From a virus (lineage: Duplodnaviria > Caudoviricetes): DNA of 24,095 bases. Numbering within the stretch: the first letter of the stretch is position 1; every line of letters begins with the position of its first letter. Below are positions 12,263-24,095 of the stretch, in pieces. The stretch lies in the IMG/VR virus record IMGVR_UViG_3300005611_001279, positions 1-24,095 of that record; one strand, written 5' to 3'. The translations under genes were made by a program, and so were the position numbers. The notes under the pieces were generated by a model that saw only the letters and a program-made list of their open reading frames with translations, ran no database searches and was not told where the DNA came from.

Positions 12263-12992
12263 CTTTCTTGCCCCAGAGGGCGATGGCCTTGGTCTTGAAG
12301 TTGTATTCCCCACGGCGGAGGATTCGAGCAAGACGCAGTGACATCAGGGCGTCGTTATGAGAGCACCCCTTGTCCTTATACGCGGCTAGAACTTTCTCCC
12401 AAAGCTCGTCTTCGGTCTTAGCGTCACCAAGCAGCTTCTCGGCAGTCTTGGGGCCAACACCTTTGAGGCCGCTGTAGCCGTCCGTGGCGTCTCCTGTGAG
12501 GGCCTGCATGAACAGCATCCGGTCGGCATCCTCCACGCTCACCGTGACGACCTCAAGGGTCTCAAGGTCCAGATGCTTGCCCGGAACCGTCTTCAGGTCC
12601 TTGTCGCCACTGGCGATCACACTGGTCTTGGTCTGACTCAGACCCAGAAGGTCATCAGCCTCAAGACCTGGCTCGTAGAGGGAGTCGTGGAGGCCCAGGG
12701 ACCAGTCAACCAGTGGGCGGAACAGCAAGGGCTTGGGAGTGCCTCTGCGGTTGGCTTTGTATTCCGGGTACATCTCATGCCGGAAGGTCGGGTTGCAAGT
12801 GTAGGCAACCTTGAACTTCTTGCACTTGGCAGCCTTCATCCACTCGGTCACTTGGTTCTCGAACAGGAGCTTGGCTTCCTTGAGGTCGCCAGTGAAGCTC
12901 CAGATGTCCTCAGACCATTCAATCGGCATCTGGACGGCAGCCGCGATGCGGTATGCCAGGATGTCCCCGTCAATCAGTAGCGTGCGTGTCAT
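12237..12992 (-). CDS. 5'-3' exonuclease (T7 gp6-like)
   Basis: LLIDGDILAY, YKANR, LEADDLLG, SGDKDL and GDATDGYSGLKGVGPKTA motifs; start set at MTRTLL. Confidence 0.95.
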   Translation of the reverse strand: MTRTLLIDGDILAYRIAAAVQMPIEWSEDIWSFTGDLKEAKLLFENQVTEWMKAAKCKKFKVAYTCNPTFRHEMYPEYKANRRGTPKPLLFRPLVDWSLGLHDSLYEPGLEADDLLGLSQTKTSVIASGDKDLKTVPGKHLDLETLEVVTVSVEDADRMLFMQALTGDATDGYSGLKGVGPKTAEKLLGDAKTEDELWEKVLAAYKDKGCSHNDALMSLRLARILRRGEYNFKTKAIALWGKKDEQQVPVC

Positions 12993-13374
12993 GTTGTGTT
13001 TTCTTGGCTTGAGAGCAGAGCCTCTTGAGTAGACCGCGCTTCTCCCCGCGAGGCACGGAATCCATCCACTCAAGCATGATCTCGACTTGGCGGCGCTTCT
13101 CTCGTAGATGCGGCAACAACTGGAGGAGCAGGGGCCGTGCAGGAAGGCCACTCACCCGCCACTTCCATTGTGGCTTCCATGTGGCGCATCTCTTGTAAGG
13201 GCCGCAGAGAATCCCCCCGAACTCTCTGTGGATGTCAGTCAGAACTTCAAGGTAGGTGTGGGATATCTCCAGGTACACACGGTCCTCGAAGACCTGAATG
13301 CACCCCTCACCGTCAATGAATCCAGCTAGGTACTCCAAGCTAGGGTCAGTGTGTTTCGCTCCAGTTTCGTCCAA
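12970..13374 (-). CDS. Free-standing LAGLIDADG homing endonuclease (start uncertain: TTG 13410, 13374 or 13338)
   Basis: Single YLAGFIDGEG motif followed by LEIS..., FGG, W.WRVS and LLPHLREKRRQ. Confidence 0.85.
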   Translation of the reverse strand: MDETGAKHTDPSLEYLAGFIDGEGCIQVFEDRVYLEISHTYLEVLTDIHREFGGILCGPYKRCATWKPQWKWRVSGLPARPLLLQLLPHLREKRRQVEIMLEWMDSVPRGEKRGLLKRLCSQAKKTQHDTHATD

Positions 13375-15088
13375 TCCTGTATTCAGCGTCCAGCGGGACA
13401 GACAGTCCAAGACGGCGGCCCGCCCTGGCCGCTGCCTCTACACAGAGCTGCCCAATCGACTCTGCGTGCTCCTTCGGAACCTCAAGTTGGACTTCATCGT
13501 GGACCATCGCTACCAGCTTCGCGCCACAGGCGTCCAACTCCCCATCGAGGAGAATCACCCACTCCTTTGCCAGGATCGCTCCCGCAGACTGGAGTAGGCT
13601 GTTCAGTGCAGCGTGCTCAGGCGTGAAGGTCGGCCTCCCGTCCAGACTCTTCAGCCATCCACGCTTCTTCGCCACCCGCTTGGCGTTGGCGATTAGGCGG
13701 TCCAAGGCTGGCAGGTTCTTGAGGAACCGCTTGCGAGCCGCAGCACCCTCCTTCTGGCCGCCGCCCAAGATGTCGCCAAGAAGGGCATCACCGCCTCCGT
13801 AGAGGCAGGCATAGGTCAGACGCTTGCCCAGCGACCTATCATCTATGCCCCACGCCTTCATGTTGTAGGTGTGGATATCACCGTCGAGCAGGGTCTCGGT
13901 GTATTTCTTGTCGGCCATGTAGTGCGCCAAGCACCGAAGCTCGAGGCCGCTGAGGTCGCACCCCACCAGCACCCTGCCTCCAGGCACGGTGAACAGGGAC
14001 CGCATCCTTTCGGACTTGTCCACTTGCCCAAGGTTGGGGCGACGGTGGGTGCATCTGTGGGTGCGCGTCCCCGAGTGGTTGACCTGGGCGTAGATCCGGC
14101 CATCCCTCGACAGCTTCATCCAAGACTGTTCGCCCTCTGCCAACATGCCAAGCATCTTCTGGAGGCGCATACGGCCAGCAAACAGCTTCGCCTCAGGGTA
14201 TGGCATTTTGGTCAGAACCGCCTCATCGAGAAGGGGCTTGCCCGCAGGCGTAAACAGGACGGGATCCCATCCGTACTTTGCCTTGAATCCTTCTGCGATC
14301 TGTTGGCGGCTCTGTGGATTGAACGGCTGCACCTTCCACCAGTTGCCCTCTTCGTCCTGCTCATGCAGGTCAGGGTCGATGGTCTTAGGCTTGCGCTTGT
14401 ATTGCTTGACACGGGTGGGAGCGAACGCTGTAGACACCTGGCTGTTCAACGCCTCCCTCTTGTCCGATAGCTCGCTGTAAAGCTCAACAGCTGCAACATC
14501 ATCGAACTCGAACCCGTTGGCATTCATCCGGGCGATGGCCTTGGAAAACTCTAGCTCCCTCTGGTAGATGGGCAGAGTGAGGTTGTATTCGCCCTTCAGG
14601 CTTTGCCACAGGCGCTCCAGGACCGTGACATCCTGGAGGCAGTAATCGAGCATCTGCTGGTCGAAGGCTGACCAGTCCGTCTCGATCTCTTGTTTGGACT
14701 CACCAAGGCGCAGACCCCAGGCTTTCAGGCTGTGGCGGCCCACCAACTCCTTGGGGAAGCCGTCAATCCTGTAGTCGATGTGGCTGGGGTCAGGGACCAC
14801 GGCACGGGCCGCCAAGAGCGAGTCCATGACCTGATCGTGGCAGGCAGCAAACTCTGGATAGAGCTTGGTGATCGCGGGGCTATCGAACCCGAGGCCGTTA
14901 TGAGCAACAAGGCCCTGGCCGCTGTGGTCGATCAGCCACTTCACCCCATCCGCCACAGAACCGCTGCACGGTTCCAGATCAGGGCGATCATGGAACGCAA
15001 GGAGCAGACCTTCTTTCTTGGCAGCGATGACATGGATCTTGGTCATCTGATCCAAGAGCCCGTCCGTCTCAATGTCGAAGTAGATCAT
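13346..15088 (-). CDS. DNA polymerase, family A (T7 gp5-like)
   Basis: Exonuclease motifs FDIETDGL, HNGLGFD and YCLQDV; polymerase motifs DLSGLELR, KRLTYACLYG (Tyr at the PolI-762-equivalent site) and VHDE; intact C-terminus IGRNWSETH. Confidence 0.97.
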   Translation of the reverse strand: MIYFDIETDGLLDQMTKIHVIAAKKEGLLLAFHDRPDLEPCSGSVADGVKWLIDHSGQGLVAHNGLGFDSPAITKLYPEFAACHDQVMDSLLAARAVVPDPSHIDYRIDGFPKELVGRHSLKAWGLRLGESKQEIETDWSAFDQQMLDYCLQDVTVLERLWQSLKGEYNLTLPIYQRELEFSKAIARMNANGFEFDDVAAVELYSELSDKREALNSQVSTAFAPTRVKQYKRKPKTIDPDLHEQDEEGNWWKVQPFNPQSRQQIAEGFKAKYGWDPVLFTPAGKPLLDEAVLTKMPYPEAKLFAGRMRLQKMLGMLAEGEQSWMKLSRDGRIYAQVNHSGTRTHRCTHRRPNLGQVDKSERMRSLFTVPGGRVLVGCDLSGLELRCLAHYMADKKYTETLLDGDIHTYNMKAWGIDDRSLGKRLTYACLYGGGDALLGDILGGGQKEGAAARKRFLKNLPALDRLIANAKRVAKKRGWLKSLDGRPTFTPEHAALNSLLQSAGAILAKEWVILLDGELDACGAKLVAMVHDEVQLEVPKEHAESIGQLCVEAAARAGRRLGLSVPLDAEYRIGRNWSETH

Positions 15089-18207: not shown

Positions 18208-18826
18208 AGTCTTCGTCCGACTCAGCGGCGTCTTCGGATGCGACTTGGGAGGGAGTATCGGGCCGCACACCCGACTCGTCGCGGAATCCGAAGCTGCTTG
18301 CGTCTCCACTATAGGAGTTGGCCTTGAGCACCTGAACAGCGCGGAGCTTGAGGCTCACGCCAATTCCCAAGGCGGGGACATTCCAAGCTGTAACCATCAG
18401 GGCGCACTTGATGATGGACCCACCGCCGACTTGCTCGTCAGTGGGCTGCGCGTCCGCTCCGATCAGCTGGACCTTGCGTTCAGCGGTCTGCCCGGAGGCA
18501 TCCTTGTAGACCGCCTTCTGCTTGCACTTGAAGATGATTCGACCAGTGGCCTCACCAGTGTCCTCATCCACCTCTTCCTCCCAGGGCTCCATAGCCAGAC
18601 GCGGCTTGGTCTTGCCCGTGTGGAGGCGTTGCACTGCTTCCTTGCGGAAGGCCGTGAGCTTCTCCAGAAGCTCCTTGCCATCATCACCTTCGAGCAGAAG
18701 GTTGACCTTGTAGACACCATCCTCATCGAACCGAGTGTCCGGGCTGTTGAGGCGCGGATACTGGGCGGTGCCAGCGGGAGTGGTGATGAACAGAGGTTTG
18801 ATGTCGTGTGTGTTGCGTGTCTTCAA
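18197..18826 (-). CDS. Single-stranded DNA-binding protein (T7 gp2.5-like)
   Basis: TP.G.A.YP.L..PD..F...G.YKV.L, VGGGS and GVSLKL.AVQV motifs; acidic tail ending in Phe (ESDEDFDF). Confidence 0.93.
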   Translation of the reverse strand: MKTRNTHDIKPLFITTPAGTAQYPRLNSPDTRFDEDGVYKVNLLLEGDDGKELLEKLTAFRKEAVQRLHTGKTKPRLAMEPWEEEVDEDTGEATGRIIFKCKQKAVYKDASGQTAERKVQLIGADAQPTDEQVGGGSIIKCALMVTAWNVPALGIGVSLKLRAVQVLKANSYSGDASSFGFRDESGVRPDTPSQVASEDAAESDEDFDF

Positions 18827-21234
18827 GAAACGAAGTACCTGCTTTTGAGAAGTCGTTTGATGTCAAATCCACCCTGCACTGGAGCAGGGGGGATGTCTGT
18901 AGTGGGCGGGAGGTACTGGCGGAACTCAGCTTCGAGGTCAGCCAGCAGGTCTCCGCTGAACACCTCATGGTAGGTGTGCTTGACGATGCGGACGATAGCA
19001 GCCACATCATCAGGAAGTCCAGCAAAGCTGTCGTGGATCACAGACAGTGAGTCGATGCCTTCAGCGCGAGCCCTGGCGCAGACCAGGTGGAGACAAGCAG
19101 CGTCAAAGCTGTGGATGACATTGGGGGCCACACCATCGGCCTGACCGCGCTTGTCGAAGCCATCGACTTCCTGCCGATACATCACGCGCACGCGCCCACG
19201 GCTGGCAAGTTGCACCTCACAGTCCTTGGTCGGCTTGGTGTGCATGAAGCACGGGAAGCCGCTGGGGCTTGTCCAGCGCACAGGCATATCGTTCTGCGTG
19301 TGGATGTCCGCGATCTTCCTCAGCCAAGCCATAGCGTTTCGGCTACTGCTGATGACCTGGCCGATAGCGGCCCAGACCTTGCCCGTGATCCACACCAAGT
19401 CAGAGAAGGGGACACCATCTCCTGAGACGAAGCCAGGCTTGCCGTGCTTCTTCGCATACGCGGTGTATTCCGCCACGATGTAGTCCTGGGCTGAGTGGCG
19501 CGTGCCCGAGTACGGGGTAATCATCACAGGCCGCTTGACCAGACTCCTGGGCAACTCGCCCCCGAAGTATTGCAGCCAAGGGCGGGCTTTGTCGGGGTCA
19601 TCCTCAAGCATCAACTTGCTTGCAGCAGCAGCAACCTGCAAGTAGATGTCCTGACGATCCTCGAGGTCGCCACAGTTAGTGGCCTCAGCGCCAACCTCAT
19701 CCCGCAAGAGCAGGCTATAGATAGCCAGACCGTTGCAGCTGCCATCTACATGACAAGGCAGGCGGATCTCCGCGTTGGGGTCATGGTGCCACCTACCGAA
19801 CTCCAAGCACCAAGCGAGGAACTGGAAGGGCTCGTCCTGCTCTGACCACCACATGCAGTCCAGGGGGTCTTCGCTGACTGCAAGGATCTGGTCCACATTC
19901 TCGTCCACCCAAGCGATGCGGTCTTCGAGCGACAGCTTGTCGTGCCCTGCGAGGTTAGCCCCAGTGATGTAGAACCAGTTGATCCCCGCCTCAGTGGTGA
20001 TGGGCTTGCCCTCACGGAACAACAGCAGAGAGCGGGCGATGTCGTCCCCTTGGGGACTCATGTAGGAGACATGGCTGTAGAGCCGCCCCCTGAAGTCAGC
20101 GAACCAAGGGAAGTAGAACCTATCGGCCTGCTTCATCGTCTTGGCAGTGAACAGCGTCTTGGCGATGTAGACCCTGCGGCTTGCGTTGCTACGCAGCTGT
20201 TCCCGGTGCATCTGGCCCGCACGCGCCATGTCCCTGCGTACTTCAATGGGCGCGTCCTCATCAGCCCTAGGCGGGGCAGGGGGATCAACCTCAGGCAGAC
20301 CAGGGACGGCTACCTCCGTCTCATACAGGTGGCTGATGACTTCGTAGACATCCGCATTCACTTGCCAAGGCACGGACTGGAGGGTGTTCATGCAGGCAAA
20401 CACTTGCTCCAACTGTGCGTCCTCCATGTGCCGCAGGTAGTCACGGTTACGGCTACGGACTGCGGGCTTCTGGATCACCTCAAGGTTGTGATATCCGCCC
20501 TCCCAGAGAGAGGTCCAGGGGCGCGGAAGCTCAACGCAGGGCATCCAAAATGGGCGCAGCACCTCAGCGTGCTCATGCGACTGCTTCAGGTACTCAAGTG
20601 TCTCCGCGGTGGGCTCGATGTACCTGTTCTTGCGGATCTGCCCGCGTGACACAGTGGTCTCATTGGCGATCTGGATGATGCCTGTGTATTCATTCAGAAG
20701 GTCCAGCATCAAGGCCCCGAACTGGATGCAAGTCTTGCGGTCCCAAGAGTCCTCTAGCCATGCGTTGCGCCGCCCGTAATCAAACATGATCTGGACTGCG
20801 CGGCGGGGGTTGCTCTTTTCACGCTTCTGCACCTGGGCAAAGAGGCGCGGGTTACGGGCACGGACCTCCTGAAGCACAAACTCATCAGACGCGGCTTGGC
20901 CGATCTGTGCTGATGCTGATGCGTACTTGCGCTTGTGGACGATCTGGTCCAAGACCACACGGCACACCAAAGCAGACAGAGCAAGGAAGTCGCCGCTCTC
21001 CTCACGGAAGCTCTCAACCTCTCTCAGGCTCGAGGCGTTCCTGCCTGCCTTCCCGTTCACCTGGGCGTACCAGTCCTTGATCCCGCGGTTCAGGCTGTGG
21101 ACGGCCTCCTTGGTAAGCGCGATGCCTGGACCTACACGGCTGGCGTACTTGTTCTTTTCGGCATTGGCGGCCAGGCTGCGGTAACGCTGGCGGCCAATCT
21201 CCGTCATCTGGCGCTCAAGGTCAGCTTGCTTCAT
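18823..21234 (-). CDS. Single-subunit DNA-directed RNA polymerase (T7 gp1-like)
   Basis: DFRGRLY, PQG.D, DGSCNG (motif A), R..VKRPVM..PY (motif B), APNVIHSFDA and IHDSF (motif C). Confidence 0.97.
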   Translation of the reverse strand: MKQADLERQMTEIGRQRYRSLAANAEKNKYASRVGPGIALTKEAVHSLNRGIKDWYAQVNGKAGRNASSLREVESFREESGDFLALSALVCRVVLDQIVHKRKYASASAQIGQAASDEFVLQEVRARNPRLFAQVQKREKSNPRRAVQIMFDYGRRNAWLEDSWDRKTCIQFGALMLDLLNEYTGIIQIANETTVSRGQIRKNRYIEPTAETLEYLKQSHEHAEVLRPFWMPCVELPRPWTSLWEGGYHNLEVIQKPAVRSRNRDYLRHMEDAQLEQVFACMNTLQSVPWQVNADVYEVISHLYETEVAVPGLPEVDPPAPPRADEDAPIEVRRDMARAGQMHREQLRSNASRRVYIAKTLFTAKTMKQADRFYFPWFADFRGRLYSHVSYMSPQGDDIARSLLLFREGKPITTEAGINWFYITGANLAGHDKLSLEDRIAWVDENVDQILAVSEDPLDCMWWSEQDEPFQFLAWCLEFGRWHHDPNAEIRLPCHVDGSCNGLAIYSLLLRDEVGAEATNCGDLEDRQDIYLQVAAAASKLMLEDDPDKARPWLQYFGGELPRSLVKRPVMITPYSGTRHSAQDYIVAEYTAYAKKHGKPGFVSGDGVPFSDLVWITGKVWAAIGQVISSSRNAMAWLRKIADIHTQNDMPVRWTSPSGFPCFMHTKPTKDCEVQLASRGRVRVMYRQEVDGFDKRGQADGVAPNVIHSFDAACLHLVCARARAEGIDSLSVIHDSFAGLPDDVAAIVRIVKHTYHEVFSGDLLADLEAEFRQYLPPTTDIPPAPVQGGFDIKRLLKSRYFVS

Positions 21235-21457
21235 GCTCGATGTCGTGAACCGTCTCGATCAGCCTCCTGAGATACCACTCAGCTTTGTGGAGATCCTGCA
21301 CTGCCTTGCCCTTGTAGCGGTAGCGCCACAGGTACTTGAGGGTGTTGCCCTTGCAGTAGGCAGCGAAGCCCTCCAGGTCCATAGACGCCTTGATGGCGTC
21401 GATGCACTCAACCTCACCTTGGTTGTAGTGCTTGGGCTGGTTCACAGGGTCAGTCAT
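21221..21457 (-). CDS. DUF3310-family protein (related to T7 gp1.7 nucleotide kinase)
   Basis: DPVN.P.HY..G.VECIDAI...GN..KYLWRY..KG....DL.KA.WYL. Confidence 0.88.
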   Translation of the reverse strand: MTDPVNQPKHYNQGEVECIDAIKASMDLEGFAAYCKGNTLKYLWRYRYKGKAVQDLHKAEWYLRRLIETVHDIEHEAS

Positions 21458-21555
21458 CAGCGGTGCCCTGAAAAGTCATCTGCACGGCCTGCTGCAACGC
21501 ACAGGGACCACATGAAGAGGAGAAGTCCACAGAGGAAAAGTAGTGCCAGAGTCAT
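21457..21555 (-). CDS. 32-aa hydrophobic membrane peptide, not in the ORF track
   Basis: Hand translation MTLALLFLCGLLLFMWSLCVAAGRADDFSGHR; AAGGA SD; TGATG overlap with the DUF3310 start. Confidence 0.6.
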   Translation of the reverse strand: MTLALLFLCGLLLFMWSLCVAAGRADDFSGHR

Positions 21556-21572
21556 GTCGTATCCTTTTGAAG

Positions 21573-21761
21573 TCAGTCGTTCATCTCCTCCAGCTGCCGC
21601 AGGCTTTCGAGGGCTCTGCGAAGCTCAGACTGGAGGCGGTCAGTTTTCTTCACCATGATCTGATGGACCTCTTCCTGAAGCTCGAGCCGCCTGCTCTGCG
21701 CCGCGATAATCTGCTTCAAGGTGTCAATCAGTATCTCGATCTGCTCGGAATGGTCAGCCAT
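21573..21761 (-). CDS. Small coiled-coil protein
   Basis: 62 aa with heptad-like L/I spacing; TGATG overlap with the DpdA-like stop. Confidence 0.65.
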   Translation of the reverse strand: MADHSEQIEILIDTLKQIIAAQSRRLELQEEVHQIMVKKTDRLQSELRRALESLRQLEEMND

Positions 21762-22438
21762 CAGTAGCTCTCGAAGAGTTCGGGGTGCCCCTCAGGCTGC
21801 TGGAAATACAGCCGATGAGGTTTCAGGCCTTCGCCGTGGTCTCGCAGGTAGTTGATTAGCCCCTGGATGCGCTGCTGGCCGCCCCGGAACCAGCCAGTCC
21901 CATCGCAGCTTTCTGCACCATGCTCATGGCAAGCCATCAGCCCGCGCAGGCTGTTGATCCTACCCACATGGACTCTAGGGAACTCTGCACACCATTCGCC
22001 CAGAGTGGACATCTTCCAATCGGTTGAGCCACCGATGAAGACAACATCCGGCTCGACCCCATGAGTGGCAAGATCAGACGGCTTCATGCCGTCCTGAGCA
22101 GCAAAAGCAAGGGGAGCACCATAACTGGCAACTCTGTCTTTCCACTTGTGCCAAAGCTCAAAGGTCGCTTCCGCGTCAGTCACGACATCGGGGACAACAA
22201 TCCACTGCGGGCGCACTGGACGGCCCACGGTCCACTCAAGGGCTTTCAGGAACTTGCCTTCATTCCACGGCTCCCCGTTAGTCCAAGCGGGGAACGCACC
22301 GTTGTCGATGGCATAGAAAGGGAGATGAGGGTACGGGCCACGCATTCCATCAGGGGGCAGTAGCAGGCCCATGCCCCCATACCTGCCCTGAAGGTAGTGC
22401 GTTCTCCAGCTAGTGCAGTTAGAGACCATGACGATCAT
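21761..22438 (-). CDS. dpdA: DpdA-like 7-deazaguanine DNA transglycosylase (TGT fold)
   Basis: AIDNGAF (cf. DSGAF/DSGGF), VVPDVV, QDG, FIGGS, VHVG and SCDGTGW (cf. S.DSSSW); ATGA-coupled to queC. Confidence 0.75.
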   Translation of the reverse strand: MIVMVSNCTSWRTHYLQGRYGGMGLLLPPDGMRGPYPHLPFYAIDNGAFPAWTNGEPWNEGKFLKALEWTVGRPVRPQWIVVPDVVTDAEATFELWHKWKDRVASYGAPLAFAAQDGMKPSDLATHGVEPDVVFIGGSTDWKMSTLGEWCAEFPRVHVGRINSLRGLMACHEHGAESCDGTGWFRGGQQRIQGLINYLRDHGEGLKPHRLYFQQPEGHPELFESY

Positions 22439-22986
22439 TTTCTGCCCTCGAGGCTTTGAGCCCTCAGGACGCAAGCACTGCAAACTCCGCATGGACCGTC
22501 AGGCCTGTAGCAGGAGTAGCTGACGAGTTCTGCATAGTCAGCCCCACTCTTCTGCATGATCTCCCTCTTGGTCATGTTGACATACGGGGCGTGGACAGTG
22601 ATGTCACATCCGCTGTGCGCCAGCATGGCGTTGCACAACTCGACAAACTCGCTGTCGCAGTCAGCGAAACCGTACCTGTCCTCTTTGCAGAAGCCGATGT
22701 AAAGCTCGCCTCCTCCACGCGAGTGCAGGATGTTTGACGCCCAAGCAACAAGCAGCATGTTCCGCGCAGGGATGATGTCCTCATGCTTTTCGGTCTGCAT
22801 GATCTTGCTGCGGACAAGCTCAATCCCCAGGTCTATGGCAGTCTTTTCAGCTGCCCACTGCTCTTTCGCAGTTGAGTGCGTCATCATCGCGTGGAACGCA
22901 AGAAGGTCTTTGTTCCCGCCTTCTTTCCAAAGGTTGTAAGCAAGGATTGTCGAATCCATGCCGCCGCTCAGAAGAATGCCCCGCAT
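22435..22986 (-). CDS. queC: 7-cyano-7-deazaguanine synthase QueC-like
   Basis: PP-loop LLSGGMDS, IPARN, F.DC..EF, K.EI and Zn site SCY..CGVCSAC..R; TGATG overlap with queE. Confidence 0.88.
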   Translation of the reverse strand: MRGILLSGGMDSTILAYNLWKEGGNKDLLAFHAMMTHSTAKEQWAAEKTAIDLGIELVRSKIMQTEKHEDIIPARNMLLVAWASNILHSRGGGELYIGFCKEDRYGFADCDSEFVELCNAMLAHSGCDITVHAPYVNMTKREIMQKSGADYAELVSYSCYRPDGPCGVCSACVLRAQSLEGRK

Positions 22987-23645
22987 CACTTCACCCCCCA
23001 GAACTTGTGGGCCTGTAGTGCCGCCAGCCATTGGCGTCCGTTGTGGTGCCTCTGGAGTCCGTCATCGTTGCTGCGCCGATTGAGCCGGATCACCGCGTCC
23101 GCCGTGGCGCGGGCGTTCTCCATCTCATTCGCCTTAGGCAGCCACAAAGGCGACAGGTAGTAGTACCAGAACCCCGTCGTGCGGCTCATCTCCAGCAACT
23201 CTTCGTCGCTCTGGCCCTGATACACCACGACCATCTCCTGACCATAGGTCTGCTTGAGGGTGCTGATGTGCGCCTTCGGGCTGACCGTCAGCCAGTCATA
23301 CGGGGCCTCGATAGCTTTGATCCCGCTGGTCTGAATGTGGACCTTGAGTCCAGCTTCCGATGCTGCCTTGACTAGCGGCAGAAAGGCAGGGCTCTGAGTC
23401 GGCTCACCGCCTGTGATGTGGATCCATCCGCCGTAGCCAAGAGACTCGAGGGCTTTGTCCACAACCGCCTGCACGGTGGTCCTGCTTCCAGAGTGAGCGC
23501 CAAAGCTGCGTGCTTCATCACACAAAGCGCGAATGTGGCACGCCTTGTAGCTACAGCCTGACAGCCTGATGAAATATTGAGCGACACCAGCCAGGTGCCC
23601 CGTGCCTTGGACAGTCAATCCTTGCGAGGTGTACCACAGGTCCAT
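22986..23645 (-). CDS. queE: 7-carboxy-7-deazaguanine synthase QueE-like radical SAM enzyme
   Basis: TVQGTG...G....FIRLSGC, ITGGEP, IQTSG, WLTVSPK and C-terminal LQAHKFWG; GGAGG SD. Confidence 0.88.
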   Translation of the reverse strand: MDLWYTSQGLTVQGTGHLAGVAQYFIRLSGCSYKACHIRALCDEARSFGAHSGSRTTVQAVVDKALESLGYGGWIHITGGEPTQSPAFLPLVKAASEAGLKVHIQTSGIKAIEAPYDWLTVSPKAHISTLKQTYGQEMVVVYQGQSDEELLEMSRTTGFWYYYLSPLWLPKANEMENARATADAVIRLNRRSNDDGLQRHHNGRQWLAALQAHKFWGVK

Positions 23646-23646
23646 A

Positions 23647-24093
23647 TCAGTCCTCCTCTCCATCGAAACAGCCACAAGCCAGAGGAGGAGCCTCAGGCCA
23701 CAGCTTCAGTTGTGCGTTGTCAGCCTCCACAAGAGACTGCCAGGAGTAGTTGCGGCCAAGACCTTGGACCGTGCCCAGGTTCTCCGCAGCGTTCTTCTCC
23801 ATAGCCACGGCACGCTCGAACAGATCCGGGCGGCGCTGGGCCAAAGCGATGACCTCTTGCTTGCGGTTAGCTGGGCAGAACCAGCAAGCAGACTTGCCAG
23901 GCGTAAACCCAAAGACCCGCTCACACGCTTCAAGGCACTCCTCCCTGGCCCACCCCCACTCAATCAGTGGACGGCGGTAAATGAACCTGGGGTCATCGGC
24001 TTCCTCCAGTGCCGCTGAACGGGGCGCCTCACCCGCGTCAATGCCGATCAGGCGCCACGTCTTCTGGCCCCTGCTCCAAAGATCGGCACAGGC
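23647..24093 (-). CDS. PAPS-reductase-like / adenine-nucleotide alpha-hydrolase family protein, C-terminal part (N-terminus outside window)
   Basis: The frame of the 65-aa track ORF is open to the window edge: ...LIGIDAGEAPR...YRRPLIEWGWAREEC...PGKSACWFCP...CGCFDG. Confidence 0.7.
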   Translation of the reverse strand, partial: ACADLWSRGQKTWRLIGIDAGEAPRSAALEEADDPRFIYRRPLIEWGWAREECLEACERVFGFTPGKSACWFCPANRKQEVIALAQRRPDLFERAVAMEKNAAENLGTVQGLGRNYSWQSLVEADNAQLKLWPEAPPLACGCFDGEED

Positions 24094-24095
24094 GC

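Follow-up and report, generated by a model that had tools for sequence, protein, structure and literature searches.

A predicted 7-deazaguanine DNA-insertion cassette with a compact TGT/DpdA-fold transglycosylase in a T7-like phage

Gene order at the locus

Positions 1 to 24,095 of the IMG/VR virus record IMGVR_UViG_3300005611_001279 (hereafter the window) comprise 24 kb of an uncultured T7-like phage in which every gene lies on the minus strand and a block of 7-deazaguanine-related genes precedes the gene of a T7-type RNA polymerase (RNAP). In transcription order, we found a PAPS-reductase-like gene at the cut end of the window, queE, queC, a gene for a 225-amino-acid (aa) predicted transglycosylase, a 62-aa open reading frame (ORF), a 32-aa ORF and a DUF3310 gene (Table 1). 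The PAPS-reductase-like frame ends in a TGA at 23649-23647 and is open at the window edge; a single nucleotide (nt) separates it from the queE start codon (ATG, 23645), queE and queC overlap in TGATG, and queC and the transglycosylase gene overlap in ATGA. Coupling then runs from the cassette through the 62-aa ORF, the 32-aa ORF and the DUF3310 gene into the RNAP gene, which starts (21234) 527 nt from the end of the 225-aa gene. This confirms the junctions, and the gene order about 0.5 kb upstream of the RNAP gene of a T7-like phage, that the original prediction had read from this stretch.

The T7-like assignment is judged by gene content: besides the single-subunit RNAP, the window encodes gp2.5, primase-helicase, PolA, exonuclease, portal, scaffold, capsid, tail tube, nozzle, gp13 and gp14, thus combining the polymerase with T7-type replication, portal, capsid and tail genes as in Autographiviridae. 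The RNAP is about 31-32% identical to those of the nearest cultured phages (2,754 matching records).

Table 1. Features of the cassette region in window coordinates
Feature	Position	Strand	Support
PAPS-reductase-like (SspD/DndC-type PP-loop) gene, 3' half	23647..24095	-	phrog_424, E 2e-14
QueE-like radical SAM enzyme, 219 aa	22986..23645	-	phrog_2076, E 2.5e-16
QueC-like 7-cyano-7-deazaguanine synthase, 183 aa	22435..22986	-	PF06508, E 8e-30
Compact TGT/DpdA-fold guanine transglycosylase (predicted DNA-acting), 225 aa, phrog_15826 family	21761..22438	-	fold and motifs
62-aa ORF, coupled (TGATG) to transglycosylase gene	21573..21761	-	no family match
32-aa hydrophobic ORF, coupled (TGATG) to DUF3310 gene	21457..21555	-	
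DUF3310 gene, overlaps RNAP start	21221..21457	-	PF11753, E 4e-21
T7-type single-subunit RNA polymerase	18823..21234	-	PF00940, PF14700

A compact transglycosylase and its que partners

The 225-aa protein matched neither Pfam nor NCBIfam; it belongs to phrog_15826, a family of unknown function (E 2e-33), and weakly resembles phrog_887, a queuine tRNA-ribosyltransferase family (E 0.008). In a family search, 1,044 of 1,148 candidates proved to be relatives, and 120 of them were aligned with the query (121 sequences). Its predicted structure (predicted local distance difference test, pLDDT, 93.7) is a TIM barrel most similar to tRNA-guanine transglycosylase (TGT) and DpdA: the top five Foldseek matches in the PDB are TGT/DpdA enzymes, among them Thermotoga TGT, Zymomonas TGT and the DNA insertase DpdA (7ui4), and in a wide fold search TGT, DpdA and Cap10 (9ntn, rank six) are among the top six, tied with aldolases. 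Named viral fold matches are for the most part annotated as queuine tRNA-ribosyltransferases. According to the parts of PMC10164549 consulted, the active site of DpdA consists of Asp95, Phe99, Asp130, His181 (numbered in S. Montevideo DpdA), Gly206-207 and Asp256. Motif alignment with the DpdA proteins of phages 9g and CAjan, made without superposed coordinates, places D45, F49, D84, Q115, G136-137 and D179 at these positions, so that by sequence motif the three aspartates, the aromatic gate and the GG loop of the superfamily are all present. In 121 of 121 sequences D45, D84, Q115, G136-137, K142, H157, R160 and D179 are invariant, and position 49 is F, Y or W; the C-terminal CxCx2C..H zinc site of bacterial DpdA and tRNA TGT occurs in none of the 121. 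The TGT fold expected for this protein is thus borne out by the fold matches and the invariant Asp45, Asp84 and Asp179, and we predict from sequence and structure model that it is a guanine transglycosylase acting on DNA.

By sequence, the protein falls into a subfamily of its own, distinct from DpdA1 and DpdA4, so that "dpdA-like", as the gene had been called, holds for the fold and not for membership of these known subfamilies. DpdA1 was rejected: NF041059 gave no match, hhalign to the DpdA of phage phiG7 returned a probability of 4.4%, and 9g and CAjan were not among the tblastn matches. The DpdA1 systems of 9g, CAjan and Rosebush share the combination of a TGT-fold enzyme with que genes, as far as the consulted parts of PMC6884629 describe them, and the D(S/N)GAF, second Asp, GG and catalytic S.D motifs align with those of the 225-aa protein. 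However, DpdA1 reaches only E 0.002-0.006 against the 225-aa family profile (14-sequence set), the 225-aa protein is about 80 aa shorter and has Gln for His, and the window phage differs in having no folE or queD in the window or the upstream contig described below, in its T7-like character and in a palindrome use that is not relaxed. DpdA4 was likewise rejected, with PF20314 (DUF6610) in 0 of 121 members and an hhalign probability of 0.1% to HVTV1_69, which as a control matches PF20314 at 3e-56; HVTV1_69 belongs to the nearest named Atlas cluster (score 0.92; PMC10516641, in the parts consulted). For DpdA2 and DpdA3, represented by nt-1 DpdA2 and phiST CGPG_00065, neither phage was among the tblastn matches, and one protein each of nt-1 and phiST is a weak fold match (ranks 30 and 39).

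The nearest kin tested is the singleton DpdA of Pantoea phage MED16 and Salmonella phage BTP1, which is of similar size (PMC8306585, as far as consulted); two uncultured members of this type match the 225-aa family at E 2.5e-8 and 4e-8. The MED16 type differs in keeping the His, in forming a separate sequence family and in having cultured members without que genes. The same source, in part, reports sparse dADG (the deoxynucleoside of 7-amido-7-deazaguanine) in MED16 DNA, at about 0.13% of G (PMC8306585), and the consulted parts of the 2019 survey give about 0.02% dADG for phage 7-11 (PMC6884629).

QueC is well supported: its PF06508 score is 104 bits against a cut-off of 22, although it falls below the NCBIfam equivalog cut-off, and it has both the SGGMDS PP-loop and the C-terminal CY..C..C..C zinc cysteines. 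Among close relatives, this gene is optional. In L008, a T7-like locus whose DNA is about 80-86% identical and which is missing the 62-aa ORF, the queE stop runs straight into the transglycosylase start; a contig of run X5 is without the same 562 nt, and in run X3 the same queC-less join occurs next to a copy that shows 67 differences over 1,269 nt. A 1,677-nt contig of run X1 carries queE, queC and the transglycosylase gene with 123 differences (93% alike).

The best NCBIfam models for QueE are all QueE models, each below its cut-off, and a profile built from eight sequences has three solved QueE sequences as its best matches (E 1e-14 to 9e-8), with E 1e-14 for E. coli QueE (6nhl) and 7e-14 for B. 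multivorans QueE (4njg), with which the window QueE has the catalytic Arg, TGGEP and the C-terminal Q.HK in common. Its cluster motif is non-standard, C31-x4-C36-x5-C42 (C-x3/4-C-x5-C-DE in the family), and the three Cys and Arg39 are invariant in 8 of 8 sequences; the 6nhl and 4njg structures instead have spacings of x3/x2 and x14/x2. This motif, not found in the titles and abstracts searched, is a candidate for a further radical SAM cluster motif. Together with a longer variant, this QueE type adjoins the 225-aa or the MED16-type family in most flanked loci of the QueE search (L109, L117 and L118 not counted), with the MED16-type family in L113, L114 and L119-L122.

Genomic context and T7-like carriers

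The context of the family was sampled from the best-scoring loci, which are not a random sample: 80 viral ones (of 377), 80 from metagenomes (of at least 462) and all 19 from genomes. Grouping at 85% identity left 93 clusters once five cultured records and those loci that had been retrieved by way of QueE were set aside. In these, 77 queD, queE or queC genes lie within 3 kb of the transglycosylase gene (399 kb in total), as opposed to none farther out (505 kb); the que profiles were partly built from these neighbours, and the QueD and QueC neighbours were called independently by Pfam. Where a cluster offers 3 kb of flank or more (72 clusters), a que gene is present in 39 (QueD in 21, QueE in 21, QueC in 16), and we counted FolE in 3, QueF in none, a PAPS-reductase-like gene in 8 and a C5 methylase in 16. 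The partial que sets vary (D only, E only, EC, DE, DC), a mixture that would fit phages topping up a host pathway. A Vut_1/VUT-family gene, presumably encoding a preQ0 (7-cyano-7-deazaguanine) importer, adjoins the transglycosylase gene in Phegasus and CRP-701. The family is described, as YhhQ, as a preQ0 importer in the consulted part of PMC6884629, and a jumbo-phage review likewise proposes, in the part consulted, that phages top up the host pathway (PMC7824862). As a side observation, QueD-like genes without the Cys of CxxxHGH (among them L014 9610-10014, L062 8372-8749, L009 4191-4571 and L029 4528-4971) stand beside the 225-aa family in 8 of the 27 clusters whose motif could be read, and two of these genes belong to T7-like lineages; they differ from the DpdL motif LxxxHRHxF too and possibly represent another altered QueD.

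Upstream of the cassette, the contig IMGVR_UViG_3300001419_000118 (loci L001 and L107), 99.7% identical over 6,480 nt, extends beyond the window. It carries the whole PAPS-reductase-like gene, two small ORFs, a tyrosine integrase (PF00589, E 4e-31) and more small ORFs, as well as T7-type terminase subunits and a long virion-like ORF; the integrase suggests that the phage is temperate. We surveyed 9.2 kb beyond the PAPS-reductase-like gene in this near-identical contig, its first 1.45 kb excluded. FolE, QueD and QueF gave no match in the window, L107, L109 or L008 (own profiles from 3, 12 and 1 sequences, respectively) and were not among the Pfam and PHROG matches of the 30 window ORFs, which include no ArcS-named family either. 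The absence of folE, queD, queF and arcS from the window thus stands as originally described, but the option that folE, queD and queF lie upstream does not, and these steps would therefore come from the host. Compared with the FolE, QueD, QueE and QueC set of Hutinet group 2 (phage dPreQ0), only QueE and QueC are found in the window and upstream contig, the stretch between the two being unseen.

The PAPS-reductase-like protein (271 aa; L001 7977-8792; PF01507, E 2e-6; PADLOC SspD, E 1e-18) is loosely linked to the cassette and is probably a separate passenger of the same block. In record 8 of run X1, a contig joins the end of this gene to DUF3310-like sequence without queE, queC and the transglycosylase gene (window 21359-23647; short side 54 nt), and the PAPS-reductase-like gene may hence occur without the que block. 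Elsewhere on the upstream contig, a PAS-domain protein (PF08447; L001 719-1288) lies immediately 5' of the small terminase gene, and a CA-rich leader ending in CCATG is common to three early genes including the integrase (L107 6208-6251, 6995-7046 and 7691-7728). A LAGLIDADG/HNH-like endonuclease ORF is found between the PolA and exonuclease genes (window 12970-13410).

T7-like carriers make up 8 of 100 clusters: seven have an RNAP, portal or T7 terminase (L001, L008, L011, L014, L043, L044 and L189), and in the eighth, L140, a T7-type PolA gene adjoins the transglycosylase gene. Their RNAPs are 24-52% identical between lineages (89% between L001 and L008), and in a quick tree of 98 rows the T7-like carriers fall into three separate groups mixed with other phages, the starred branches forcing at least four changes. 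In the window lineage, L008 and L043/L062/L182 the block lies between the integrase and RNAP genes; L011 and L014 carry it between primase and PolA, and L140 and L189/L197 directly before PolA. Because its position differs among T7-like carriers, the cassette is a mobile module and not a fixed stand-in for the early anti-restriction gene of T7; the place on the RNAP side, in which the original prediction had seen that gene's position, is not conserved, and the likeness is positional only. In T7-related L044, the RNAP-like and terminase genes point one way and the genes for integrase, dCMP deaminase and transglycosylase, with queC and queE, the other.

Among 50,697 cultured phage records, 27 match the 225-aa family by either of two queries: mycobacteriophages and Arthrobacter phages (annotated "DpdA-like"), Rhodococcus, Erythrobacter, Synechococcus, Roseobacter and Vibrio phages and two Escherichia phages. 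The "DpdA-like tRNA-guanine transglycosylase" of SEA-PHAGES (Phegasus, Majeke and kin; Arthrobacter phages Aoka and Sonali) is the same phrog_15826 family at 30-37% identity; as far as found, the name exists as an annotation only, and these phages differ in being siphovirus-type and, for Phegasus, in having a transporter instead of queE and queC. We found no T7-type RNAP in the stretches of six cultured carriers examined, the remaining ones being judged by name. Likewise, no report of a 7-deazaguanine cassette in T7-like phages was found among titles and abstracts on Autographiviridae with deazaguanine or DpdA and on T7-like phages with QueC, subscription papers lying outside this search, and to this extent the novelty originally claimed for T7-like phages holds. 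The podoviruses of the 2019 survey are three, 7-11, SE131 and BTP1, in the parts consulted (PMC6884629); the names of the cultured carriers and "Autographi" are absent from the supplements searched of PMC6884629 and PMC10516641, and the 2023 table may use other names.

A DNA-insertion module and its alternatives

Based on these findings, the cassette is most likely a module for the insertion of a 7-deazaguanine into DNA, and we consider it likely that preQ0 or a close derivative is inserted into phage DNA after replication, probably sparsely. Host FolE and QueD, whose genes are assumed, would make 6-carboxytetrahydropterin (CPH4), which phage QueE would convert to 7-carboxy-7-deazaguanine (CDG); preQ0 would then be formed from CDG by phage QueC, or by host QueC in relatives without queC, so that the phage genes would supplement the host pathway rather than replace it. 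The 225-aa barrel would work by way of an Asp179-DNA intermediate: Asp45 would serve as acid/base, Asp84 would read the base edge, and the excised guanine would give way to the new base. Some guanines of the replicated DNA would thereby be replaced by a 7-deazaguanine, most likely preQ0 or its amide form, and such marking, probably sparse or motif-limited, would shield the phage from only some of the host's nucleases.

Several observations weigh against this interpretation. The TGT matches of the wide fold search rank level with aldolases and epimerases. Gln115 replaces, in 121 of 121 sequences, the His181 of bacterial DpdA, which DpdA1 also has, and Gln at this position is also a feature of tRNA TGTs; the Gly loop, which reads the 7-substituent, is GG[ST]TxWK and matches neither published consensus. 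The literature searched yielded no assayed member of the family. The QueE model is poor (pLDDT 58) and its cluster motif unusual, and 33 of the 72 flanked clusters have no que gene within 3 kb. Moreover, in Vibrio phage R29Z and Escherichia phage phiG7 the family adjoins a separate DpdA1-type gene, and it may therefore have another function. In the Seuratvirus phiG7 (L007 5887-6479), 1.4 kb away from the canonical dpdA, the clamp and DNA polymerase genes flank a member split into two pieces; R29Z (L004 4767-5351) has an intact member in the same setting, and no member occurs in 35 kb of CAjan or in 35 kb of 9g.

Palindrome use also argues against dense blanket protection, or else for a recent gain. 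Counted over 33.6 kb of window and upstream sequence, 6-bp palindromes reach 0.23 of the expected number, and 31 of the 40 sites that could be tested are nearly absent, a comparison in which hosts differ and controls are few. The cultured T7-like phages Cd1 and P26059B, without the cassette, reach 0.18 and 0.50, and the heavily modified CAjan and 9g reach 0.70 and 0.72 (35 kb each; 0.91-0.96 for GA-containing sites). Because the genome still avoids restriction-type palindromes, sparse marking is probable; these counts hint that the modification is sparse or motif-limited, or that the block is recent. Genome modification with dPreQ0 or a derivative, as originally proposed, would be in keeping with the fold, the catalytic Asp residues and the que linkage, and its dense form is disfavoured. 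Separately, ACGT is nearly absent (1 versus 81 expected; window and L107 1-9500), and CAGCTG (32 observed, 26 expected), CTCGAG (21, 10) and CCGCGG (12, 11) are spared, in L008 as well, CAGCTG being depleted in all six other T7-like sets counted; spared sites may reflect host nucleases or a protected motif.

A more far-reaching version, which we regard as rather doubtful, is that a sixth viral DpdA subfamily in several T7-like lineages inserts CDG, held by Lys142 and Arg160, instead of preQ0, and that with the new-type QueE, an optional QueC and the SspD-like enzyme these phages could alternate between deazaguanine chemistries, among which there may be an undescribed DNA base.

There is a small chance that the barrel is a second-step or editing enzyme, exchanging or removing 7-deazaguanine derivatives in DNA, and not the primary inserter. 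Its coexistence with a DpdA1-type gene in R29Z and phiG7 would agree with this, and the Gln in place of His and the invariant Lys142 and Arg160 suggest another substrate; but none of the 72 uncultured clusters has a DpdA1-like gene within 3 kb, and the window and upstream contig contain no second transglycosylase, leaving the barrel alone with QueE and QueC. We consider it improbable that the cassette consists of auxiliary metabolic genes for host tRNA queuosine, with the barrel as a TGT. Gln115, the preponderance of tRNA TGTs among the PDB fold matches and the resemblance of partial que sets to pathway boosters point that way, whereas the length of 225 aa, the missing zinc motif, the lack of QueF in all 72 flanked clusters and of tRNA genes in the window and six loci, and the DNA methylase neighbours do not; nor were QueA, QueG and QueH found in phages, according to the parts of Hutinet 2019 consulted (PMC6884629).

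Equally improbable in our estimate is that the block was gained recently or is decaying and at present does nothing to the phage DNA, for which speak the unrelaxed palindrome avoidance, relatives that are without parts of the block or continue unlike it, and the mycobacteriophage Orion, which has DpdA only and is unmodified (PMC6884629, in part); all frames are nevertheless intact and coupled, all catalytic residues are kept, and the block recurs in eight T7-like clusters and in the 93%-alike contig of run X1. Least probable is a counter-defence making or binding a deazaguanylated protein like CBASS Cap9/Cap10 or QatC, as the Cap10 match and weak QatC matches over about 40 residues of QueC might suggest, because canonical QueC is matched far better, close relatives keep queE and the barrel without queC (near in only 16 of 72 clusters) and the nucleophilic Asp is invariant.

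The chemistry of the DNA-insertion module proposed here is known; the transglycosylase subfamily is a separate one, the QueE is unusual, and carriage by T7-like phages was not found reported. If true, T7-like phages join those with 7-deazaguanine marking, and their own RNA and DNA polymerases would have to read the altered base; a large transglycosylase subfamily (1,044 proteins in one search) would be added as well. Because Pfam and NCBIfam miss this family, surveys by DpdA signature would undercount modified phages. Lacking a zinc domain, the 225-aa enzyme would offer a compact means of introducing deazaguanine handles into DNA, and the natural pairs with and without queC would offer a direct handle on substrate choice.

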